Source: an uncultured bacterium (lineage in GTDB: Bacteria > Auribacterota > JACPWU01). Taken from it: DNA of 32,000 nt. This document shows, piece after piece, positions 1 to 18,000 of this stretch (its first letter is position 1; every line of letters starts with the position of its first letter). Position numbers and translations under genes: made by a program. Location of the stretch: assembly GCA_964640155.1 (NCBI GenBank), contig CAZXEQ010000002.1, positions 240,001 to 272,000 on the forward strand. The letters are read 5' to 3'. The notes below the pieces were generated by a model. That model did not search any database and was not told where the DNA came from. It saw only the letters and a list, made by a program, of their open reading frames with translations.

Positions 1-3000
1 ACGCTTAAGAACTGGATGCCCTCGAGAGAAAACAGTGTCAACTCTTTCACTCAAAACATTCAAAGCTTTTGTTGGATTTCGATCATTCGTCACCAAATAA
101 CCATAAGCCAAGTGGGTTGTTGCATAATTGGTTACTTCTTCGGACAATTCAACAGCCCTTTGACTAACCTCATGATGAAGCTGGGGACGATCAGCTAAAT
201 TCAAATATTTCTCAATAGCGTTATAAGGCTTCCCAAGCCCTTCAAGATAGGTGATATCTAAAGGTTCTGCCTGTACAGCCGCTCGCACCATCACTAATCT
301 CAAGAGATCACTTAAAACAGCCTTCCCCGCTTGTGCATCTTCACGAGAACGAATATCTTCATTATAAAGAGAGGTGATTTGAACGGCCTCAGAATGGGTG
401 ATTGAACGAGGCTTTTCATCTTTCCTGACAGGTTGATATCCAATAATTTCCGAAACCTCATGAGCAAGCGCGCCCGCTGCAATATTCGGCCCTCTGCGCT
501 TCAACAAAGCTTCAAGTTCATTTGCCTTTGAAAATCCATGTCCTCTATTAAGAAGAGCTGTAGGAATATAAATGGTATAAATTAAATTCCCTTTGTCATC
601 GACTTGGGACTCTGAAATCGCAGGAATAGGTTGAAGCCCATAACCTTCTCTTTCAAATCCTGTCACGTCTGGGCCTAAATCTACAGGCTGAACACGAATG
701 AAAGCTTCTTGATATTGAACGCCATTGATCTCTTTAGCTTTTGCAAGCTGGATCTTAGATGCCTTTCTTTGACCTTTTTTCCCGGATTTCACGCCCAACA
801 AAGCATCTGCAACCCGTTCACTGTGTCCTTGATAGCCTGGAATATCTCCTGCTCCTTCTAAGAGATCACTAACGCCTGTCTCATTAAAATCTTTCCCCGT
901 CATAGGGACTTTGTTTCTACCTTGCTTCTGTACAATAGCTCGAATTCGGGTAAGTACTCTCGCTTCTTCATCACGCTCCAAATGAAACTCATTGGGTGCT
1001 CGTGCGGTGATGGGAGTTCCCGCCGCTGCAACGCTTAAGACTGCATCAGGGGGTTCGACGAATGCTAGAGCTGGTACTTCTGCTGGTACAGGAGCCCTAC
1101 CAGAATCAGTCAAAACCGCTCGACGAGTAGCAATCATAGTAATCCGCTTCTCCAACCCCTCAAACCATCCCTTCACAGGTTCTGAAAATTTTAACTCCTT
1201 TCGATTGGCACGATCAACATTCGGATCGAAGTCAAAAAGAAAATCTAAACTTTTCTGACCACCTGGAGCATCAGCTGTATAACTTGCCGCATCAGACATA
1301 TAAAAAACTTTTAAAATTTCAAAAAACTCTTGCATCGATTTTCCTGATTCACCTGCCATTTTTTGAATCACAACACTTGCTTCTTCTGCAGTTATGAGCT
1401 CTTTCATATATTCCCCCACCGGATCTCCACTGAGAAGTGCTTGAGCAAGTTTGATTTCATTTTCAGAACAATCAAGCTGTCTTAGAAGAAGTCCTACAAT
1501 ACGAACCGTGTGTATATGCTGATCTCTTTTGTCTCCTTGCATAATCGCTAAATTTTTTCCGATATCATGAATCGCAAGAATCATTCTAAAAAAAACTTTA
1601 TCCACACCAGGAATATCTCTATTGCCAAAATAATGTTCAAACTGACGTAAAACCATCTCTGTGTGTTGTTCAATGGTGTAACCCTCTACAAGGTCCGCGC
1701 CTGCTTCTAATTGTTCTTTAAGGAATGGGTTTGCATCCTTTAAGGCTTTTATGAAGGCTTGCGGGCTAAATGAAGTGGCCGATTGAGCTGCCAGCTGACG
1801 AATATTTGAAACATGGGAGCTATTAATACTCTTAAAAGTATTAGAAGAAAGTTCTGATAGTTTCTTTTGAGCTTCTTCAAATGCCTTCCAAAGCCCCGTT
1901 TCTTCGCGTAACACTCTATTTACTTTTTCTTTAGCCTTGCTGATAGCAGCTTGAACATCTGACCTATTTCGAATATTTTCTGGAACTTGTTTTAACATAC
2001 TCTCCAGTACACGTTGACTGATAAGGTCTGTTCGAATGATTGCTTCATCACGAAAACCACTTCGACGTCTCTCTCTAGTGATCCTATCGAATATTCCATT
2101 TGACGCCCTATCTATCTCATCAATTTTCCCAATCACCAATTTTTCGAAAAGATTATTAATCCCCTCGGTATGATTCAAAGCCAAGACTTCATCTTGTAAA
2201 AAAAGGCCCTGAATCATTTCTACTACGGAATTAACATCTTCCAAATAACCCGAAGAGGAGACACTTCTTGTTCTTAGTTGTTCGCGTTGATCCGAAGGTA
2301 GTTTTTTCAAAATCTTATTGAAAGCTCCTTTAAACTTATAGATCTTTCCCTTAAGCGAATAAACCGTTGGAACCTCTAAAATTTTACAAAGCCTTTCCAA
2401 AACAGCTTCCTCTTGACCGTTGCCAGATGTATATTCCCGCAAGAAGACTTGTTCGACAGCACGAAAGAGATCCGATAAGGGAATTTCATTCAATTCATTA
2501 AAAACTTTTTCTTCTTCTCTTAAAAATTTCTGTCGTTCTCGTTCTTTTAACTCTTCATAATCGCGTGTTGTAAATTCTTTACAAGGCACCTTATCTGTTG
2601 AGTCTTTGTGCATCACCGTAATAGAATTCCCTACTCGGGCCACCACATCCCAAAAAATAGGTCGCCCTCTTAACGCTCCCATTGTAGAAGTAACGATAAT
2701 TCTTCCTTCATTACTGTCGCTTGCTTTATACGTTTCAGCTGTTTCTATACCGTCAAGGCCAACGCCCCAATCCGAGCCCCCTAGCTTGGTATCTCCTAGT
2801 AAACCAGCAAACTTTCTTGGAACACTTCTATAAACAGGAACATCATCAGGGAAAAGAGTCATGGTTAAAAGCATTCTCAAATCAGCACGTACGCCCGTCT
2901 TAAAATTTATTCCCATTTCATTGAGAGTTTTCCGGACAAGATCTAGTACTTGAGCACTATTTTGATAGTTTCCGTTTGCTTTTCGACTCACAGCCTCTCG

Positions 3001-6000
3001 AACTTCCCTAATTTTGCTCTCATTTTGTAATAAGACGACCGCTGATCTTTCTTCATCAGAAAGAGAATCCAAAAATTCTTTGATCAATTGGCCCACGTTT
3101 TTATTTGCATCCCAATGGGGATTCTTTAAATGAGCGTTCATCCCATTGAGGATGTTTAACACGCCTTGTGTTGATAAAATTCTTCCTAATTGAGGATATG
3201 TTAAGCTCATAACCTCCTCGTCTACAGTGCTCATCATTGAAATATTTTCTACTGTAGGAGAAATTTTTCTGACTTCCAGAGTATGCACTCTCTCAAAAAA
3301 CTCAGCGAGGATGTGAGCAGGGTCTGCTGATGGATTTCGAAGTGTCAACTGAACATTACCAGAAGCATCAAAGGCGACATCTATGCCTTGCACTTCGAAA
3401 AATGCTATGAGTGCTTCTCTGATATTGTTCGAGCTCGTCGAGAACGAAGCTAAAACTTGTTTTAATTTTTGCTTTGGATTTGAATCAAGACCTAAGTAAA
3501 ATTCACTAAGTTCATGAATAGCCAATTGAACGAGAGCATTGTTATCAGCATTTTCATAAAAAGTTTGTGTGGTATAAACCTTTCCACCGGGTCCTCGGAA
3601 AGCAACCACTTGTTTTGTAACAGGCTTTCCTCCTCTTTTTTGCTCGATCACTGTAAAAAAGGGAGCGCCTTTGTCCAAACTTACAGTGACTTGTGTGTCG
3701 CCACTTTTAAATGTAATCGCACTTATAGATTCAAACGTCACAATCTCTTCCAAACCTTTACCCTCTGAGCCCGCCAATCCATAACGCCCTAAAAATTCAT
3801 CTGCTGTTTTTTCAATCTCATCAAGTTTAGCTTCAGAACGAGTATGAGACACTCGTCCGACCACTTTACTTGCATTGTCAGTATTTTCTAACGCCTTCAA
3901 AACTTCTCCCACTCTCGTCTCAGAGATCGGATGTGAACCTTCGACAGGTTTTGTGGCGGTCCCTCCCATGGTATCTCCTCCACGTGTTGTTCCTGCGCTA
4001 TTAATAATGTTCAAAGCATCTTGAAGAACTTTAGTACGATCTCCTAGAGACACCTCCGCTAACGCCTGAGCAATAGGACCTAACAGTACTCCGTGCAAAG
4101 CAGCATCAAATGGAATTCGGCCTAAACCAATATCACGCGCTATTTCCAACACCGTTGACTTTTTTGAAAAGTCTCTCGCCAGTTGCTGAGCAACTACTTT
4201 ATTTCGAGTTTGTTGAGACAACCCTTGCTTTAGGGCATTCATGACTCGTACTTGTGGTGATTCAAACCATCCGCTCATAGCGTCAAAGACCGAAAGATTC
4301 TTCATAAATGCTTCAATCACAGGGATACGACTTAAAAATGGCATCGCTGAAGAATATTCAGAAAATTGTGGATGATTATCTCCTCCTCCATTCTTAGGAA
4401 TCTGATCACTATATTCATAACCCGGGATAAGAAGAGCTTTTGGAAAATCTAAGAGCAGGGTATTTGTTTTAACGCCAAAACGAGTAACTGTTAGACTTTT
4501 GGGTTGTATATCTGCTAGCCAAACAATGGGATTTCCTTTTTCATCTCGAGTACTTTTAAAGTGAAAATAAATTTCTCCATTTTGAGATTCGAAAATATGA
4601 TTTTGAATCTCTCCATAAAGTGCCCCCTTGCTTGTAAATTTTTGCACCAGGCGACTAAAGTTAGGAGCATATCCCTGTTCAAATTGAATTGAAGAAAGAT
4701 CATCCTTATTTGTCTGACGAGCAATCGTACGTTTCTGGCCTGCAGACTGAGGCGCCATGTCCAATAAAGGTCCAACTTGTTGAAACAATGTTTGTCCCAG
4801 CACCAAAGAAACTTCAAAATCTTTAGGAGCTAACGGACCTCGCATTCCTTTCTCAAGCAATTCATAAAAAAGATTGCCATACTTTGGAAAGTCTCTCTCA
4901 TTACTTTTTTCTATATTTTGATGAATCCAGGCTAACTCTGCCTGGATTTCAATAGGCAAAGATGTTGACTTTTCACTCTTAAAACCCTTTCCAATCCATC
5001 CTCCTGATTCATGAGAAGCAGTCCGCCAAACATCCTGAGAGTTACTTAAATAACAAGAACGAACATAAACTTCACCTTTATGATGAAGATAAAGAATACA
5101 GACGGGCCTCCCTTCGGAATCACGATATGGATCCGAAAAATAATAAACTGCATCTGGGGCACTCACACCAGGATAAGCAATCTGATAACGTGGCTCTAAT
5201 CCAAGCCCATCAAGTTCGGCAAGTGTCATATTTGCATTATAAATATGAACCGGAGCTCCCGAAGCCACAACCCCTTTTAGACTTGTTGCAGCAGTTCCTC
5301 CTCTATAATCTCTTCGTACTTGTTGTAGCAAAACCTTTCGAACATTTAAGCGGCTTTGAGCCTTTTGAATAGCATTTCGTACTGTATCAATGTCCTTTAA
5401 ACTTTTAAAAACCACTTCCAAAGTTGAAACATCTGCTAACTGCGCTCTTTCAACAAAAGCTTCCAACTGTCTTACCATTTTAGGAAGAATACTTTTTTCA
5501 ATAAATTCTAGAGGAGATTCTTTGGTGTAAGTTGCGACTTTAAAATTCATTTTCGCAAAACCAACCAGCCCTTTGGAAAAATCAGGCCATCTTTCTGCTT
5601 GTATAGTCCCTAACACCATTCTTTCTAATTCCTGAGCCACATTCTTCCAAAGAGAACCAAGAACTCGAATATATTTTTGTGCATTGTCAGATTTATCACC
5701 ATAAAATTCAATCATTGCTAAACATACATTTGCCAATACTACCCTTTCTTCTAAACTGATACCTTCCCTGGAAACCCAACTATTAATAGAAGCATCTGCA
5801 CCTGTAGCAAGCTTTTGCATCCATTCACGGCCTTTTACAGATTCTTCTGTCTCAATCCATGAAACAAGAGAATAAACTCTCATAAATTCTGAAGGATTTA
5901 ATGCACTTAAAGCTTTTTGAATCTCTACCTCAGCCAAAGGAATCAATTTATTTTTGATAACAACATGCTGTTCATCAAAAACTGATCTTCCTGCCAAATT

Positions 6001-9000
6001 ATTGTAAAAAACCCCAAAAACCTCATCCCATTCTGTACAAATTGTTTTGAATCCAATATTAAGATGTTCTCGGCTTTCAATCAGAGAATCCACAATCGCA
6101 GAAGCTCGTGCTCGAAATGCTTTATCGATACGAGAAGATACCTTTTGAAATTCACTGCTAACCCTCAGTTTCCCTAGATCTGGACTCGATACAAGTTCTG
6201 CAAGTTTTTCAAGAGAAGAAGCTTGTTGAATCTGAACTTCAAAAGCTTGAACTTTTTGCCCTATATCTTCAGAGACAATCATCTCTTCAGAGGGTTGAAG
6301 TCCCCTACCCCCTCTTATCATCCTATCTACCTCAGCTCTTTGTCGGCCCTGAAATTCTTGATAACCTGGAAGAGACGCTAAGCGAGCCCTCGCATCTCGA
6401 ATATCAGAAAGAGAAGGATTCTGTTTCCCGATAAAATTCTTGGCTGCATTAACATCAATTCCTATTAAAACCTTACTTCGTAGATCTGCTTCTAAACCGC
6501 TAAGACCTTGTTCAATCTCCCTAAACTCTTCATCTGTCATCACAGATTTTGCCCGAGCCTCTCGGCGTTTCATATCTTGATAATCAGCTCGTGCGTGAAG
6601 ACGATCCAAAGCCCGTTGAAGCACTTCTTTAGAGATATCTTTGACACCCAACAAAGCCAAAAATCCTGAACAGGGCAGAACGTTCTGTACCCCTAAATTC
6701 GGTTCTTTGCCTCCTCCTTTAGCGATCCATATGGATAATACATACTCTATGTCCCTTAAAACTTCATCACTTAATACAATGGGTAGAGGCGATGTGGTCA
6801 TAACATAGGTTATCTCGTCTTGATTTCCTCGATTAATGATTATTTCTCCTTCTTCATTGAGATGCAACATTCCTGCATTTTCTAAAATCATCCCTTGGCT
6901 TTTTGTGAGTGGATAATTTTTTCTTCCGTCTCTGGCAACAATGCTGCCCGACTCGTTGTATTCTACGTAAACTCTAGATCGTGGAGTGACAATGCCAATT
7001 CTAACACCATGTGAGAGAGGCAAGGCTTTTACTCCAGACGGCTCTAATGTCTTTGCTGAAAAAACATTCACAACAGGAAAACCTCCACCATAAATCTCTT
7101 GTAAAATGGAAGCCAATTCTTGCTTCTGCGATGCTTCCATCCCGCTCATACGATCCACCCAAAAATAAAGAGCAGAAATTTGTTCAAGAGACAAAGCCCC
7201 TTGGGAAAATAAACTCTTCAAATAGGTTTCTACCGTATTGTAAGGATAGACTCCCTGAGCATACATCGCCATAAAACCACTTAAATAAACAATTCCGTCA
7301 GGAGTTAAGGAAAGAGGAGCTAAAACTGCACCTAAACTATTCTGTATATTTTCCTGAAGCACTTGAGTAGCAGCTTGCCTGAAACTTGCTTCAAAGATCT
7401 GTACTTGTTTTAATTGATCTGGACCTAAAACTTGCCCTATAAGCTCATGATGTGAAAGCCGATCTTCTTGGATAAATCTTACAAGTTTATCAACCGACCA
7501 GTTTTTCATTTTTCTTAACTGCATTCTTAAGAAAGGAGATTCGCTGTAGGAAGTTCTATTATTTTCTACAATTGCATCCGCCCAAGCCAAAGCATGAGCT
7601 TCAGCTTCATCAAAATTTTTACTCGTTCCAGGATTAAATTGTGTAAGTCGAACCGCTTCCCTCGACTCATGATCTACTGCTTCGTCTTGAATAGCCTGAA
7701 CCTCAGATTCATAATCTATTGCCTCTCTCTGCAAGACTGGATCGATCTGGCGATTCACCGCCATATAAAACCTACCCGATCCTTTAGGAAATTCAAAATG
7801 ATGCGCGGTTAAACCTTTCATCTCGGAGGCAGGCGCATACCAAATTCTCATTTTTGTTTTATTCGCATCATTAAGCTCAATTTCTTCTTTTTCGTCTTTG
7901 GCTTGTGCCTCATATCGATTTACAAACGCCTGAAGCTCTGCATCATCGAATTCGACCCCTTTACCTTCATTTCTCAAGCCGACGTCTTTAAGGGCTAGAG
8001 CAGCTTGAGATGGCAAAGCCCCAGCTACGCTTGGCTGAAGCGCCTCACGCCATACCGCTGAAGCCCACTCACCTGAAATCACGCGTGCCATTTGAATAAG
8101 TTGTTGATCTGTAGCTTGGCCTGTCAAATTTTCATTGATCAGCTGGTCCAACCTTTCATCAGCAGAGAGACTTCCTAATCGCGCTAATCGTTCCTCAAAA
8201 TATCTCTCCCACATTTGAAAATCGACAGTAGAATGCCCGCCTAATACCCAGACCATTCTGTTGCCAAAATCAGAACCAAAAGTTTTTAATTCGCCCAAAA
8301 TATTTTTCTGAATATTCGAAGGCAGATTAAGGAAAAATTCTGTCTCAAAAATTCTAGCTAAAGAATCTCCCATATTACCTGTAAGTCCATGTTCTAAACG
8401 CAAATTCGCATCAAAAAGAACAAGCAAGGCTAAATGAGGATATTTTAATAAGGTTTGATCCAAATAAATCTCCCCATTCTCAATACTGAAAACCCTGGGA
8501 ACCTGGGTAAAATGAATTTTTTCGATACGATCAATATTGATTCTTGATCCTGCATGTCTCTTGAATAAGCGAAGTAAACTGGGCCATGCGTCGATAAAAG
8601 CTTGCGGTTGGGGGCGAGAAGACTCATCGACAAACGCCATAGCAGAAGATGGTTCCGAGATTAAAATGTCACCTTGGGGGCCAGCAACTCTCAAAACAAG
8701 TTCTGGAAGTGTAGTACCACCGAAAGCAGCTGAACGATAAGCATTCGTAGCTGTCGGAACAAGTCCTGCTCTCTCACGCAAAGTTCTAATTTCTTCGTGG
8801 TTTCGAATCGCCAAATCAATCACTTGCGCCCATTGCTCTTCAGAAACATTTGCATTTCTCAAAATCATCAAAACAGAACCTGACAATCTTTCCCCTGCAG
8901 CCAAAGTTGCTCTTGCCACTTCAAGAATATTGATAGAAATTTTAGATAAGGAAGTGGCTAGCATACGATAAGCTTCTATTAATCGAAATCTTTCCTGAAT

Positions 9001-12000
9001 ACCACTTAATTGAATTTGAAAATTGGAAATACTCGCTCTTCCATAATAGAGATCCACAATGGCTGCTGCTAAATCCTGAGCTATCAAAGAATGGTTTCTG
9101 GAAAATGCTTTTCCCAATTTTCTCTTCCAATGATTTTCAATTCTAGAAGCCAATAATTTGGCATTATCAGGGAATCCTGTTACAACTAATTCACCTGTAA
9201 GGTAAGTCACCATGCTGTAACAAGCCCTTAAAACATCTAGATTAGGTTGAATTTCATTGGGACCAAGGGGAACTACTGTAATGTTACCAGCTATATCTGT
9301 TATGGGATAACCTTCAGAATCCCAATTTACCTTAAACCCTGGTCGAACATAAACACCGGCCAAAAATCCTTGTCGATTAAAAGTGTAAATATTTTCACCT
9401 TCTGAGGATATTTGAGAAGCCATTCCCCAGTCTATTACTGCAATAGACGGTTCAGAGCTTGATTGAAGATCCACTTCTAAATTTCCATAATGAAGATCTC
9501 CATGGCGTATCCCTTTTTGTGCAAGAGCACCTATAAAATTTCCTATTTGTCCCACAAGAGAGATTTGTTCATGTGGAGATAAATCATAAATTTCTGGAGA
9601 GTCAAATTTAATACTCGCATTCTGATTGCGAATATCGATCATTTTCTTAGTAGAACCACTTTCCGTAAGTTCTCGACGAAATTCTTGAATTTGATATTCA
9701 AGTCGAGCACCTCTTTGTGAAACCATTTTTTCTGATTTTAAAACTTTCACAGCACTTTCAGGTGCAGATTTAAAGAAATCCTCTAAATAAGCATGATAAG
9801 AATCTACAAAGGAATTTGGATTTTGTAGTTCTACTTTAAGCACAAAATTGATAGGCGTTCCGTTAACCATCTTTTGAACAACTATCGCAATACCTTTTTG
9901 CCCAGAACCTAACACTTTCGTAATCACATCAAAATCATAAGCCTCTCCTCTAAGTTTACGTCTGAGCTGATCACGTTGAAGATCCATAATTCCCCCAACT
10001 AACTCGTTCTGAAGAGCTTCATTGGAAGCATAGCCTGTTCCTTGACCACGAATCGTATCTTTCCTTCTCACTTCCCCCGCAATGTCAAGTTCTAATAAGC
10101 CAGGTAAAGTGATAAGGGTTTCTTCTACTACCATGTTTGTTACAACTTCTTCCAAATTTTTCAATCTTCCTATCATTTTAAAAGCAGGCATTTGAAGTAT
10201 TTGCTGTAAGGCAAATCTCTGTTCTTTAGACAAATTGATTAATGCGTTTCCCAAAGCTCCTTCATTAGGGAATGCCCCAGCATAATAACCCACTAAAACA
10301 TAAGCGAGTTTTAAAATAGATTCATAATTTGGGAAAAAATGTCCTGGTAAAAGACTTAAAAAAACAAAGAGATTATTTTCTGGATGGGCAAAAACTTGGT
10401 TGTCAGGATCAAGCCCCATCAAGAAATCTATAATTGTTCTTACTCCTCTCTCACCTAAATACGGAGTTAAATCCTTGATTAAGCGATCATGAAGACTAAT
10501 CAATGCAGCATGTGCTACTTTAACTGACAAATTTCTAGCTCTTTGAACATCGCCTTCACTCAATTGGCCACTGGCCAACAAAGCTTCATTTTCTGGGCTC
10601 AACTCATATCGTTGCATTAATGTAGCAAAATAATCTCTGTCACCTTCCTCTGCTGCATTTCTAAAACTGATTAAAGACAACTCGCTCATGATAGGTTCTG
10701 CATTCCCAGAAACATCTGAAATCCAGACTTGTGCTTGGGTTCTAGAAGCAGGATCTTCATTTAAAAGAGCTTCCCATTGCACAGCCTGCAAATGTTCAAG
10801 CCCTAAAAAGGTTTCTCCAATTTCATGCCCAAATAACGCCAACTGAGCTGCTTGATTCTGGACTGCACTTGCCAAAAAATCTAAACCCCCTCGCGTCACA
10901 TACACCGTATGTTGCTCAATGCCATTTCTAACTCCATCAGGTTTCGTATATGCCATCACAGGACGTTTGCTTTCATCAGTTCTAAACCCAACGTCTGTAG
11001 TCTTCACTACTTGAATATTGAGTTGTACTTGCCGACCATTCCTAAGGGTTACAGACCCGCCTTTTAAAATAGCAGCGACCCATTGATAGAAAAAAGCGAT
11101 TCTAGGATCAAGATCTTGTCGTGTACGAACTTCTTCGTAGAACCTTTCTACAGCAGCCACCAAATTCGCACGCTCTTTCTCATCCATGCTGTCCTCCCCA
11201 AAAAATCCAACCGCTGTATTTACAGATCTCTCTAATTTTTCAGCACCTACATGTGTCCCCGCTGCTTTTCGAGTAGTGGGAGCTGGAGTTTCTAATTTTG
11301 AAATTGCAGCCCGAATATCATCAACTGAAGCTGAGCCATCAATAGCATTTAACACTGTTTCAAGTCCATCAATCGTTGCTGCATCATCGGGATTCACAGA
11401 AGCAAGAGCAGCAGCATAGGGGCTATCTGCTTCACGTAATTTATTCAAGATTTTAATAAGAATGCCTCTCCGATTCGAGATTGGAGACTCTTTTGAAAGC
11501 GCTCGAAGAAATAAAGCATATTTTACAAATCTCATTCCTGTCATAGCAGCCCTGCCTGCATGTGCAGGAGCAAAAGCCCCTGTAAAATCTACACCTAACG
11601 TATCCATTCCTGTTCTAATTTCTTCTTGAACTTCTGAAGGAAGTCTTAAGAAAAACTCTAGTTCTAATGCAGCTGTAATGAGTTCTGCCGTGGCTTTACC
11701 TGCAACATCATAGAGTTCGTACTGTTGATGAATTGCTTCATGAAAAAGAAGATAAGCAATAAAACTAGAATTTTTTGCCAGACGTTCATCATGTAAAATA
11801 AGATGATGAAGACTAATTCTCCCGTTTGAAGTTTGAGCCATACGATCCATAAAAAGAGAAAACCCGATGGGCCCTATTTTATCTGGATCAATCAGGGAAG
11901 AACCATATTGCTGGAGCTTTACCATTACTTCAGGCCAAATTGATTTCAAAACGGTTCCTTGAGGATTTGTATCTGCAGTCCCTTCCAAAGTTATACCATT

Positions 12001-15000
12001 CAAAGTAAAACTTCCTTTTTCTGCATCAAAAACAACTGCCTCTGACGCCATTCCAATTGCAGCAGCTTGCACAGGCTGAGCTGTTAGTCCTACTGCTCTC
12101 CTTAACTTTTGAATTTCAACAGCTCTTGCTTTTACCTCTTTCAATTTGGCTAAAACTTGGTTTTTTCCTGTCACTCGCACATTGGTTAAAAGACTTCGAA
12201 TATCCGAAGATAATACTGCTTCAACCGTAGCACCTGGTTTAGAAAGTCGGCTGATCATCGAATCTAAATTCGCAATCGACACCGCTGCCACTAAACGAGC
12301 GACAACCCGTTCTGGAGTAAGAAGGGAAATCACAGGAGCAATCGGAGGAGCACGTTCTTCTTGATTTAAACGTTCCTCCAATCTTTTCCAGCCTAGTGTG
12401 ACTTGTTCCACTAACGAATCTGAAAGGTTTTTATTAGCTGCATTTCCATCATAAAGAACAGGGAAATCAGCATCGAATTGATTGAGAGCAGCAATAGCAT
12501 CTTGTGTGGAAAGACTATCCAAACTTGCAATAACTCTATCCAATTTAATTTTTGCTTCTTGAAGATCAGGGATCGGAGCACGTGTGCTCGTCCAATAAGG
12601 GAAACTGTTCTCCGCATTTGAAACCGAAAGTGTAGGACGAAACCCCTTTTGAGATTTTCCAAATAAAGTTCTCGATAATTCTCCAGAAGTAAACTGGATT
12701 CCAGCGCGAAGAGTCTTTACAACTTCACGATTAAAGAGTATTCGGACTCCTGTATTTGGACCTTCCACTCCTACCCGGGCTTGCTCTTCAGAAAGATTTA
12801 GAATATTTAAAAATTCATTCCATCTAGAAGCTTTCAAATAAGCATTTCTAACTCTCGGAGATAAAGATGCGACAAAAGCTTTATACTTCTGAGGATCTTT
12901 GAAGCGCAAGCGTTTCGTTAAATCATAATTTACAGCACCATTTGCTATCTCAAGCTCGACAGACTGAACCCCCGGCAAAACCTTTGACATCAATAAAGAG
13001 TAAAGACCTTTTCCACTCAGACTTCCAAAATCTACATTGTGAACAAAAAGAGTATTAGTAGATCTATTAATCCCTAAAGAAATTTGAACATCTGTTGCTG
13101 TTTCAATAAAAATTGAAATAAAGATTTCATTCTCTCCAGATTGAATAGGAGGTGCTCTAATCTGAAATTTTAGAGGATCTCCATTTTCGTCATTAACTAT
13201 TTCCCCATTTTCATACTGCAAGGTAAAACTACCTTGCCTGATAAGCTGAAGAATTACAGGTTCCTCAGCGGCGGGTGGGGCGCGTTCTGCCTGAATAAGA
13301 CGTTCTTCCAATCTTTGCCAAGCTTGAGTAACTTGTTCTACTAACAAATCTGAGATATTTTTATTGGCGGCATTTCCATCGTAAAGAACAGGATAATCCA
13401 TATCAAATTGATTCAACACTTTAATCGCATCCTGCGTAGAAAGACCATCTAAGCTTGCGGTGACTCTATCTAACTCAGCTTTTGCTTTTTGAAGATCAGG
13501 CACAGGAACACGGGTAGCCACCCATTCAGGCCATTTTGAAGATGCAGAAATAGAGATCTTTGGACTAAATCCTTTTTGAATATTTCCAAAAAGAGTTCTC
13601 GATAATTCTCCTGGTGTAAATTGAACTGTTTTCAAAGCTCTTAGAACTCTATTTATAAAAATATTTCGCAAGTCAGAAATACGAGTTTGCTCTTTAACAT
13701 CTGTAGAAGCTTCTGAAAGATTACCCATTTTTTCTAAAAAATGCTCCCAAGTGTTAGAGGTAAGATAGGCATTTTTTACATCGGGAGAAAGATCCGTAAT
13801 AAAAGCTTGATGTCCCTCTATGTCCTTAAACAGAAGTCGTTTGGCCAATGCATAATTTGTATCTCCATTCATCACATCTGTTTCAAACTTATTTATACCA
13901 GGAAGAATTTGCCTCATAACATCACTGACAAGGCCTTGTTTCGCATTTTCTTTCATGTCTATAAAACCGACATATAAAGATTTATTTTCTGAATTAAATA
14001 AAAGCGTCACCTGCATACCAAGCTGCTTAGATAAAATGATAATTTCTCTTTGTCCATTCTCATTCCCAGTTATTTCTTTAACTTGAAACTCGATTTTTTC
14101 TCCATCTCTATCTATCGCTATTAACTTTCCTTCTTGTATGATTTTCAAAATCGCTGGCTGTGGTTCACTCGCAATAGCTCTCACTCGCTTCAAAGCTTCC
14201 TCGAGTACAGCAACCCTTTCTTCTTCTGCAACATTTTCGAGAAGAGGTGTAACTTGGGGCACTGCAAGTCCTCTTTCCCATTGGCTAAATTTATATTCAC
14301 TACCTTTCTTAAGAAGCGTCATTGCTTCAATTGCAGGAGCCAACACCCTTTCTCCAAGAACCATTAATTTTTGAATCACAAAAGGTTCTAGAATTTTTTG
14401 GAATTTCTCGATAGCTTGATCAATAGAAAGTTCCACTCTACTATCTTTAAATTGCACTTTGAGCAGTTCAAGTTTTGAAAGAACCCAAACAATTTCTGAT
14501 TCTTGCTTTGAATTTGCGAAATTTCTTTCCAAAGCATTTAAAGCGTCTGTCACTAAAAGAGTTCTTGTCACTCCATCAAGAATCCTGACTTGCCTCAATG
14601 CCAAAGCAGTCAATGCAACTTCAACTTGTTCTTTAGTACTAGCCATTTGAAATTGATTCATCAGAGCATCTGCTGGTTCTTTAACAATAAATTCAGACAC
14701 ATGCTCTCCCGTTGTTGCTACAAGACCAAAGGTGTAATAACCTAAATCTCCATTAGGGGCTGTAGTATGAAAAATAGTTTCCTGAAGGATAGAAATAACA
14801 CCATGAAAGGCTCGGTCAAGAACTGCTTGTTGAGCAGGATTACGATCAACAATGGCTCCTCCTAACATATAATTGGCAGTAAAAACAGCCACCGTCTCAT
14901 GAGGATTTAACATCCAATAGCGATCATCCTCTGCAGAAGTGGGCTTGATCCCTACTTTCCCATTTGTAAGTTTGAGAACATCATAAGCAAGCCTGTTACT

Positions 15001-18000
15001 TCTACGATCTTCAAATGTTCTAATCTCTTTTTTCAAAGCTCCCGCTTCGGGAGAATTTTTATCTGCTAGAGAACTAAGATTTTTATTTAAGATATCAATT
15101 CTTTTTTCCAAATCATCTATTGTATTTTTGTTTTCATCCTGCTTAAACAAAGCAAAATCATCCATATCACTGTCGAGAATCTGAACATGCAAAATCCCAG
15201 GTTCATCTTCACGAACCCAGCGGCCACGATTCTGTAAATTCCTAAAAGCATCGAGTGAATTTTTACGTCCATTATTTTCAACCAAACTTTCTAATTTTTT
15301 ATCAAGTGCATCTGTACTTAAATCAATTAAAGTTCCGTCATTATATAAGTAATATTTAAAGCCTGCGGCCACCGCAATTTTCTTCCATTCTGAAATGGAT
15401 ACAATAGGTTGACGATTTGAATCTGATCCCGTAGCTAATTTATGAGCAATTTCGTGAAGAGCGGTGTTGTCCGTAAACTCACTAAAATCAATCCCCCAAC
15501 CTGAAAGGGTTTTATCACTCCTAGCAAGGCCAACAGCCTTCGCACGCTTAACATCTTCCCCTGTAATGTCCATCACCAAAAATGTGCGATACTGTCTAGC
15601 CATCGATTCAGGCAAATATCGAATGGCATTTTGAAAATTACTAATCGAATTTAATGGTACATCGACCATAATCGCTACGTTTTTTGCCCTCGCATCCAGA
15701 TGAAGCAATAAAAGAGCTTTTAAGTCTGGAGTAATATCCAAACCTTCTACCATCTTTCTTAAATCACCAAGAATTGCCTTATCTTCCAAGGAAAGGCCTT
15801 GTTCATTATTCGCCTGAAAAAGAGCTGCATTGACAATATTTTGGACGATGACGTTAAAATATTTTTCAATGCTACGACAAGTCTCCCAATGCAGAAGTAA
15901 TCCCTGCGTTAAAAAATTAGTATTGGTAATAACAATAGGAAGCGATAAGCCTTTTAATTCTTGAATATGCCTTCTTACTCGCTCCATGGAACGAGGCTGT
16001 TGAACAGCCTCACGAGCAATTTTATCTGCCAACTCATGAGCTTTAATTTTCGCTTGTTCTAATTCTTCGCCTAAACGATGAAGTCCCTTTGATTTTTCTT
16101 CAAGAAAAGCTTCACTCAATCGAGCTACTTCTTGATCCAAAGTACTTGTGACGGTGAGAATATTTTGAGCTGTAACCTTGGCTTGCCCGAGTGTATGCAC
16201 TCGTTCCAAAAATTCGGCTAAAATATGAACCGAATCTGAAGCAGGATCAACAGATGGATCTTTTATTTGAACGGTTGCTCTGTTGGCAGCATCAAATGTT
16301 ACTGTAATTCCATTTGCATCAAAAAATGCAACAAGCGCTTCTTTCAAAGACGCTCTTTGCGCAATTTTTTGTAAAACAAGCTCGATTCGACCCTGAGCAT
16401 AGATCTCCGTAATCTCATGAATAGCAACTTGTATGCAAGCTTCTTCACTCGCCTTATCATAAAAAGCTTGCGGCATATAGACGACAGCCCTATTATTTTT
16501 TAAAGTTCTGAAAGCAATTACCTCTCTAACATTCTTCTTATCTAAGGCCACTTCTTCTGTAACTGTTAAAAAAGGTGCATCTGTTGATAAAGTAAGCGTA
16601 GCGGGTATTCCATCCGGATCAGCATAATAAATCTCATTTACAGATGCAAAGGTGACAATATCCTCTAATCCGCTTTGATCTTGACCAGCCAAATCAAAAT
16701 CTCTTAAAAAAGCATCTGCTTCAGTTTCAATACGCTGTCGTTTCTCTCCAGAAGGCGATTGTCTTCCTATGACCTTGCCTACATTGTTAGGGTTATCTAA
16801 TGCTTGTACAGTCTTTTCGACCATGCCTGTATTAATCGGATGAGCTGTTTCCCCTGGACGCACAGCCATTTTTGTTCCTGTACCCGCTGCAGGAGCTCCA
16901 ATCATACGTTGAATTTCTTCATTCGAAGCTCCGCCTAACAACGCATTCAAAACTTTTTCGATGTTTTCGGGCGTGAGTGCTTGCGCATTCGCAGCTTGAA
17001 TAGACTGAATTTTACTCGCATAGGTACTACCTTCAGCAGAAAGATGCGTTACAACTTTTTCAGCAAGAGAGCGACGTAAATGCTGGCCTTGCGATATTTT
17101 TTCTAGCAGAAGAGCTCGCGTTCCTGCAGACTCTGCAACTAAAGCAGCAATTGCTGGAGCGCTCACAACATTTTGATGAACGAAACTTGATCCAAACAAT
17201 TCGAACCCTTGTTTCACTTTCGATTGCGCATCAGGAGAAAGTCTCAAGAAGAACTCTAATTCTAAAATAGAAGCAATAATTTCTCCCCAAGCGTCATCAT
17301 AAAGCTGGTACTGTTGATGTATGGCTTCATGAAAAACAAGATAAGCCAAAAAGTCTTCGTTTTCGGCAAGTTCTTTCTCCTTCAAAACATGCTCATGAAC
17401 ACTAATTCGACCCTCTCGAGTGAATCCAAGTTTAGTTCCTAAAGCATCAAATGTAATATCCCCTAAACTTTCTACATCAATAATAGGAGCACCATACTGT
17501 TTCAGCCTTGCAATCACTCCCGGCCACGCTTTGCGAATTGCTTCAGCATTTGGAGCATGCTCTGCTTCTTGATCTTTCGTGAGTTCAGTTCTTAAAAATT
17601 CAAAAGTTCCACTATCTGCATGAAAAATTTTTGCCGTAGAAATTTCTGCGCCCATTGCAGCTTCTCGAACAGGAACTGTAGCCATTCCAGTTCGCTCTCT
17701 GAGTTGTCTAAGAAGTTCTGCTCTTGCTCTTGCTTTTTCAAGACTTGCAGCTCTCTGATTAGGAGTAGTCGCTCCTGCATCCTTTAAAGCCTTTTGAACA
17801 TAGCTTGGTAGCACAGTTATGCTAGCACTTGGTTGCGCAACTTGTCCCCTCATCACATCTAATTCAGAAACTGTCACTCTGGCCGCTAAGCGAGCAATCG
17901 CATTTTGACGGTCTTGAAGCACAATAGCTTGATCTCTCAACCCAGTCGCGCGTGTATCATTTTCATCAAAATCTATAATGGCATTTGCAACAGCAATAGC

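Follow-up and report, generated by a model that had tools for sequence, protein, structure and literature searches.

Putative minimal gluzincin-type metallopeptidase domains and a probable pseudo-peptidase copy in a giant protein of an uncultured Auribacterota bacterium

Can a module that recurs three times in a very long bacterial protein, twice with an intact HEAIH motif and once without it, be placed among the zinc metallopeptidases? The question is raised by a 32,000-nucleotide stretch of DNA from an uncultured member of Candidatus Auribacterota (assembly GCA_964640155.1, contig CAZXEQ010000002.1, positions 240,001 to 272,000), here called the window. A minus-strand frame without stops extends over window positions 1-25101 (8,367 codons), and from its likely start, the ATG at 25065, it would encode a giant protein of at least 8,355 amino acids. 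The C-terminus lies beyond the window start, so that only the first 8,355 residues are visible; residue numbers are counted from the ATG at 25065. Based on sequence comparison and structure prediction, we propose with fair confidence that A1 and A2, two copies of the module, represent minimal zinc-metallopeptidase domains of the gluzincin type and that the third, A3, is a pseudo-enzyme, all within a giant protein that would be exported. The giant frame and its A modules are located as follows.

1..25065, minus strand: giant open reading frame (ORF), at least 8,355 residues (stop-free frame; Pfam and NCBIfam scans)
16900..17862, minus strand: A1 repeat unit, residues 2402-2722 (internal BLASTP; hidden Markov model, HMM)
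17170..17556, minus strand: A1 zincin-like core, residues 2504-2632 (AlphaFold2 (AF2) model, Foldseek, alignment)
17317-17331, minus strand: A1 HEAIH, residue 2579 (motif reading)
17260-17262, minus strand: codon of the A1 invariant Glu, E2602 (alignment; 18 residues intervene after the second His)
11302..12267, minus strand: A2 repeat unit, residues 4267-4588 (internal BLASTP, HMM)
11578..11967, minus strand: A2 zincin-like core, residues 4367-4496 (alignment)
11728-11742, minus strand: A2 HEAIH, residue 4442 (motif reading)
11662-11664, minus strand: A2 invariant Glu, E4468 (alignment; 21 residues between the second His and the Glu)
8137..8946, minus strand: A3 repeat unit, residues 5374-5643 (internal BLASTP, HMM)
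8260..8616, minus strand: A3 core, the putative pseudo-enzyme copy (alignment)
8398-8412, minus strand: A3 DANLR, which replaces HExxH (alignment)
8323-8346, minus strand: A3 ETEFFLNL, with the retained Glu at 8344-8346 (alignment)

The A unit is present three times, in collinear copies of about 320 residues each that contain a catalytic core of about 125 residues; a first-pass annotation of the sequence had put the module at about 200 residues, a size that matches neither. The two HEAIH sites that it had reported at 17317-17331 and 11728-11742 are exact on the minus strand, and the alignment bears out its description of A1 and A2 as sharing FHEAIHQQY(Q/E)LYD followed by ELEFFLRL, the latter within (I/A)LELEFFLRL. 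By self-BLASTP of the giant protein in chunks, A1 and A2 are 35% identical over about 320 residues (E 2e-57), with 43% identity in the core, and A3 matches each of them at E values of about 1e-9 to 4e-10. The aligned position in A3 reads LFDANLRLEH, as opposed to (V/L)FHEAIHQQY in A1 and A2, and its ETEFFLNL aligns with ELEFFLRL, as had also been described; both His residues and the catalytic Glu are lost from this copy. An HMM of the three copies recovered no fourth A copy in the visible 8,355 residues, and further copies could lie beyond the window edge.

A giant frame offers many positions at which HExxH might occur by chance, and from the composition of this protein (His 1.5%, Glu 8.2%, Cys 0.2%) about 0.15 such motifs are expected per 8,355 residues. 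The idea that the HEAIH sites are chance occurrences in a large low-complexity or non-coding frame nevertheless deserves hardly any weight. The frame runs for 25.1 kb without stops, the motifs occupy homologous sites in paralogs with 35% identity, the motif is also kept by relatives in other phyla, which stood out from 1.84 billion proteins with E values of 4e-7 and 2e-5, and the fold model described below is confident. Moreover, when A1 and A2 are compared in windows of 15 residues, conservation is highest at the HExxH block (13/15 identical) and next at the Glu-helix block (11/15), whereas their overall identity is 35%. Within these blocks the A1 and A2 codons show synonymous differences, so that the identity is kept by selection and not by recent gene conversion. 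A third HExxH, outside the A modules, may be the kind of occurrence that chance produces.

15442-15456, minus strand: HEIAH, in the context TALHEIAHKL, outside the A modules (motif reading)

This motif could be a chance occurrence or part of a different zincin; its region had no family or PDB match, and the three-copy HMM ruled it out as a further A copy. The segment NPHETVAVFTANY lies about 95 residues downstream of it. A reading of ELEFF and of HEIAH...HETVAVF as similar to anthrax lethal factor was supported by none of the tool results.

Relatives of the A domain are extremely few. When a profile of A1-A3 was scored against 1.84 billion representative proteins, the only matches were P0001 (219 residues, from a metagenome, E 4e-7) and P0002 (3,866 residues, E 2e-5), the latter being MBI1884640.1, annotated as 'PP2C domain-containing protein' in a Chlamydiota metagenome-assembled genome (MAG). 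A third relative, P0003 (231 residues, 86% identical to P0001), emerged when the core alignment was used in a word-indexed search of 5.8 billion proteins. No relatives were detected with A1 alone in protein collections, with the A alignment in a scan of metagenome contigs, or with the A1 core by tblastn in phage and plasmid collections, and the window's own proteins were not found in the protein collections searched; an exact look-up of the neighbouring PilB likewise gave no record. P0001 and P0003 are stand-alone proteins of about 220 residues (219-231) in which the A domain is the sole recognisable part, which suggests that this domain is able to work outside giant proteins.

All three relatives keep HExxH (HEAAH in P0001, HEATH in P0002 and HEAVH in P0003) as well as the downstream Glu, which is located within (A)LE(T/L). 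The conservation of these residues in orthologs, which the first-pass annotation had named as a check, is thus observed, although in a very small sample. That annotation had also compared the position of the Glu, 19-21 places after the second His, with the gluzincins; the invariant downstream Glu stands, and the count is corrected to 18 intervening residues in A1 (also in P0001 and P0003) and 21 in A2, with 19 in P0002. Across the six aligned sequences, the invariant positions of the core are W11, I34, I51, L63, F75, E99 and F103.

The A1 core (129 residues, 2504-2632) was modelled with AF2 from the six-sequence alignment, and the model reached a mean predicted local distance difference test (pLDDT) score of 92.3 and a predicted template modelling (pTM) score of 0.87. 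It consists of a helix at core positions 4-22, strands at 34-37, 44-47 and 50-54, and helices at 67-83, 89-105 and 108-127. The HEAIH motif (H76-E77-x-x-H80) falls within the predicted helix 67-83, the three-strand sheet directly precedes that helix, and the invariant Glu, at core position 99, lies on the predicted helix 89-105 that follows it. An earlier AF2 model of the 331-residue A1 unit had a pLDDT of 62.8 with a confident centre at residues 105-225; a fold search with it returned only noise, with selecase at rank 8, and the core model replaced it.

Searches of the PDB by Foldseek with the A1 core placed selecase and projannalysin at the top (E 0.02-0.06, probability 0.96-0.99, template modelling (TM) score 0.43-0.55). 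The next matches were PprI/IrrE, an uncharacterised B. anthracis protein, SPRTN, many M1 aminopeptidases, M60 peptidases and MATCAP, and the named matches among the viral models of BFVD were SprT-like, IrrE, M48 and 'metallopeptidase' entries. The best matches in both databases are almost all zincins, and such near-exclusive content of two lists obtained with a predicted model would be hard to get by chance. Structure prediction, proposed earlier as a check on the module, therefore gave what the metallopeptidase-like reading called for: a confident core with an HEAIH helix, then a Glu helix, and zincin-dominated fold matches, none of them at E<=0.001.

Profile searches of the Pfam and MEROPS type, proposed on the same occasion, gave no family. 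The best Pfam match over the HExxH region was PF10023 ('putative aminopeptidase'), a family of the Peptidase_MA clan, at a sub-threshold E of 0.061 and 13.1 bits (cut-off 25). The features of clan MA(E) can be followed in the model: HExxH is on a helix in A1 and A2, and the motif is present in P0001-P0003 and missing from A3; a beta-sheet subdomain lies ahead of the active-site helix in the A1 core; and a Glu is carried by the helix after it, where its predicted position would suit a ligand. A conserved Tyr or His that could stabilise the transition state was not found across the six sequences. From the sequence comparisons and the model, the A domain is most simply described as a sequence family of its own, new and extremely rare, whose fold and mechanism class, that of the minimal gluzincins, is already known. 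It is not filed under M1, M4, M48, M78 or the minigluzincin family, because none of the sequence-based membership tests places it there and because it is embedded instead of stand-alone.

Several points weigh against assigning the A domain to the metallopeptidases. No sequence or profile search of Pfam, NCBIfam, PHROGs or PDB with the A module gave a match above threshold, none of the fold matches in PDB or BFVD reached E<=0.001, and the TM-scores lie at the borderline. The model was built from six sequences only, and AF2 may have been primed by the HExxH motif itself. The conservation test is thin, with three relatives of which two are 86% identical to each other. In addition, a second acidic position (E or D in 6/6 sequences; E2595 in A1) is found 7 residues before the invariant Glu, and E2595, two helical turns before E2602, could be an alternative ligand or a second-shell residue.

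In view of these observations, a zincin fold with a metal site appears likely for the A domain, and genuine peptidase activity is moderately probable. The fold matches hold at the superfamily level only, no peptidase family profile recognises the module, and the six sequences have no conserved Tyr or His of the kind mentioned above; these facts would also suit a zincin-like metal-binding fold with another function, either as a different metal-dependent hydrolase or as a binding domain. A few HExxH proteins of zincin fold, of the YgjP/DUF45 type, have indeed been assigned non-peptidase activities. We consider this explanation unlikely, as the full HExxH with its general-base Glu and the downstream Glu are found in every catalytic-looking copy and nearly every named fold match is a peptidase.

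The A3 copy has lost both His residues and the catalytic Glu of HExxH, and its scaffold and Glu-helix are kept. The earlier description of this copy as decayed holds for the active site and overstates the case for the remainder: A3 is 29% identical to each outgroup, similar to A1 and A2 (27-31%). All three copies are thus about equally distant from the outgroups, and A3 is best seen as an old, still constrained paralog with a site-specific loss of its active site; by sequence, A1 and A2 are the younger pair and A3 is the older copy. Without HExxH it cannot catalyse by the mechanism proposed for A1 and A2, and it is probably a binding or structural pseudo-enzyme, for which pseudo-peptidase is the best term.

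The persistence of A3 without the motif, at equal similarity, could also be read as a sign that the motif is dispensable and that none of the three copies is catalytic, each being a scaffold or interaction module; in A1 and A2, HExxH-E would then serve a structural metal or helix packing. A giant protein rich in repeated modules of unknown function would accommodate such modules. This seems quite improbable to us, since the motif blocks are the strongest peaks of conservation between A1 and A2, the motif is kept in distant relatives that include small stand-alone proteins, and enzyme families often include pseudo-enzyme paralogs next to active members. The fold model, the conservation and the loss in A3 thus lend computational support to the original suggestion of two potentially active metallopeptidase-like modules and a pseudo-enzyme in one polypeptide.

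If A1 and A2 work as their fold class would predict, zinc would be bound by H2579, H2583 and E2602 (H4442, H4446 and E4468 in A2), E2580 would act as the general base that activates the zinc-bound water, and the G-R-I-S strand before the active-site helix would pair with the substrate backbone. Export of the giant protein would proceed through a Sec-type N-terminus, which is located as follows.

24952..25065, minus strand: signal-peptide-like or anchor segment at the giant protein N-terminus, MTQPLKQRSH..FFFTSLGLPQA (sequence reading, hydropathy scan, inference)

To judge from its residues, this N-terminus (MTQPLKQRSHTGFGFFTRVVSWCTLFTFFFTSLGLPQA) resembles a Sec signal peptide or an anchor, and a hydropathy scan revealed no further hydrophobic or transmembrane segment in the visible giant protein. 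The substrate might be the giant chain, self-cut into modules, or proteins of another cell or of the environment, and we regard self-processing and the cleavage of foreign proteins as about equally plausible. A more elaborate and rather doubtful proposal, made by analogy with viral polyprotein proteases and the MARTX cysteine protease domain, is that the giant protein is a self-processing 'effector polyprotein'. After Sec export, possibly with help from PilB/PilT/PilC, A1 and A2 would cut between modules and release kinase-like and other modules that act on another cell, and A3 would have a docking or regulatory role.

The remaining part of the giant protein contains further modules, most of them recognised by self-comparison.

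23446..24888, minus strand: N-terminal domain, residues 60-540, about 480 residues (common to P0002 and an Omnitrophota MAG contig)
21346-22053, minus strand: B1 module (paralog of B2 and B3)
20767-20952, minus strand: weak FHA-like stretch upstream of K1 (APLF FHA match, E 0.002)
19747-20646, minus strand: kinase-like module K1 (paralog of K2)
18031..18753, minus strand: B2 module, directly N-terminal to A1 (self-comparison)
16114-16899, minus strand: C1, directly after A1 (40% identical to C2)
12328-13980, minus strand: D1/D2 duplication, adjacent and 54% identical (self-comparison)
9016..9924, minus strand: kinase-like module K2, directly N-terminal to A3 (self-comparison, sub-threshold Pfam)
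7321-8013, minus strand: B3 module, directly after A3 (paralog of B1 and B2)
3199-3978, minus strand: C2, about 4,300 residues from C1 (40% identical to C1)

Pfam and NCBIfam scans of the whole giant protein and of ten sub-regions gave sub-threshold kinase-like matches only. PDB sequence and profile searches with both halves returned nothing relevant, and matches to beta-trefoil designs in these searches (E 0.04) were judged to be noise. The N-terminal domain shares 28-29% identity with the P0002 N-terminus and with the Omnitrophota MAG contig (L002, 29%), and its motifs are ILIQDSH..EAQ, IGVEG, ELYGIExKDLY, LRDE and GGFHTxGL. A Tiki/TraB/ChaN-like nature of this domain, suggested by these motifs, had no support from Pfam or NCBIfam.

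The B module is found three times in the window and once in P0002, where it directly follows A. Its conserved motifs are MKGLxAHxF, HExRE and EAHxxAxAE, the invariant forms being MKxLxAHxF, HExxE and AHxxAxA, and they may form another metal site. The possibility that B is a diverged A copy (HExRE versus HExxH) was ruled out by an hhalign probability of 0.2%, and no B-module homologs were found in searches of 5.8 billion proteins or of metagenome contigs. K1 and K2 have sub-threshold Pkinase/ABC1/APH/Bud32 matches and keep a G-loop-like GSGxxG, the Lys in VLKV, HGDxxxxN and (I/F)ID. Kinase-like and FHA-like content is unusual for a protein with a signal peptide.

Among public genomes, the region was matched by a single 4.9-kb contig of a Candidatus Auribacterota MAG (JAYRIK010000036.1), with 96.9% nucleotide identity over window positions 21388-26304, a stretch that takes in the N-terminal domain. 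In MAGs assembled from short reads, the giant gene is evidently broken up. Upstream of the giant gene, on the opposite strand and diverging from it, are four genes of the Pil type.

25714..31710, plus strand: PilB, PilT-like, PilB and PilC genes (T2SSE, T2SSE, T2SSE, T2SSF; ORF list, domain scan)

They encode a PilB of 568 residues, a PilT-like ATPase of 364 residues, a second PilB of 568 residues that is 48% identical to the first, and PilC. Besides the N-terminal domain, the Chlamydiota relative P0002 carries protein kinase and PP2C domains, an A module at 2756-2861 and, directly after it, a B module at 2936-3165. The order A-then-B is thus shared by P0002 and A3-B3, and it is reversed at B2-A1. 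On the Chlamydiota contig JACOUD010000087.1 (L003 1-21940), P0002 is preceded by a 2,688-residue kinase protein, which shares the N-terminal domain with the window giant and P0002, and by a 19,623-residue gene. Very large, related genes are clustered on this contig, which comes from another phylum of the Planctomycetes-Verrucomicrobia-Chlamydiae (PVC) group.

Annotation is largely lacking for the giant proteins of uncultured bacteria of the PVC group, a form of 'dark matter', and one rare domain among them can now be assigned to the zincin fold with reasonable confidence. A divergent HExxH domain or a dead paralog would be no surprise to a specialist, and the understanding of the zincin mechanism is unchanged. 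What is of interest is that searches of billions of proteins gave only three relatives of the family, that its setting is a giant and otherwise unannotated PVC-group protein, and that the idea of self-processing can be tested. The key residues are named (H2579, E2580, H2583, E2602 and their A2 equivalents), the same chain provides a natural active-site-null paralog, and the sequences can seed a new peptidase family. Together they offer an experimental handle on whether giants are processed into pieces or carry proteases that act on other cells. If self-processing is true, a new zincin family would be a processing engine of very large proteins in Auribacterota, Chlamydiota and Omnitrophota.

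Compared with known systems, the A domain comes closest to the minigluzincins, which have been described as the minimal M48/M56 scaffold (10.1101/2020.07.07.192476). Selecase and projannalysin of M. jannaschii (4QHG/4QHI/4QHJ/4JIX) were the best Foldseek matches, with TM-scores up to 0.55 over about 115 columns. The predicted A core resembles them in its size of about 110-125 residues and in its order of helix, three-strand sheet, HExxH helix, Glu helix and C-terminal helix. It differs from them in sequence, with 13-16% identity in structural alignments and a PDB profile search without a match. Whereas minigluzincins are stand-alone archaeal zymogens of about 100-110 residues in which a C-terminal tail blocks the cleft, the A domain forms part of a giant bacterial protein, where it recurs three times with helical flanks of about 100 residues. 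Its own stand-alone relatives measure 219-231 residues, and it has no sequence relationship to M48/M56.

The M1 signature is HExxH-X18-E, and in thermolysin the spacing is about 19-20 residues. The A domain shares with these gluzincins the placement of a Glu on the helix after that of HExxH, with 18-21 residues between, and ERAP1, APN, IRAP and PfA-M1 were among the fold matches of the A1 core (E 2-6). It has no sequence-family match to M1, and neither the large N- and C-terminal domains nor the GxMEN exopeptidase motif, and is not an M1 member. IrrE/PprI/ImmA (M78-like) and SprT/Spartan/WLM proteins are also small HExxH domains, acting as specific regulatory or processing proteases. IrrE and SprT types were among the top fold matches (8SLM, 3DTE, 6MDX, and viral SprT-like and IrrE entries). 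The third His of SprT and metzincins (HExxHxxxxxH / HExxHxxGxxH) is absent from the A domain, as in all six sequences position +6 from the second His is occupied by another residue. The A module had no Pfam match to Peptidase_M78 or SprT, and its context differs from that of these small zincins.

At the level of the whole locus, the nearest parallel is provided by the giant exported proteins of Omnitrophota, which are encoded beside GspE/GspF-type genes and contain embedded peptidase domains; in PVC-group giants, such domains have been proposed to cut the giants into pieces (10.1101/2023.11.21.568195; 10.64898/2026.06.07.730766). The Pil gene set beside the giant gene echoes these GspE/GspF-type loci. 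Like the 'Archaeovorins' and the dockerin-type giants, the protein described here is very long, would be exported, has PilB/PilC neighbours and carries peptidase-like domains. Dockerin, glycosyl-transferase/hydrolase, methyltransferase, NUDIX, C39, S8 and SecA domains were not found by Pfam in its visible part, and the many transmembrane helices of the Archaeovorin type are absent from its first 8,355 residues. The locus thus differs from the Omnitrophota giants in belonging to Candidatus Auribacterota, also of the PVC group, and in its other type of peptidase.

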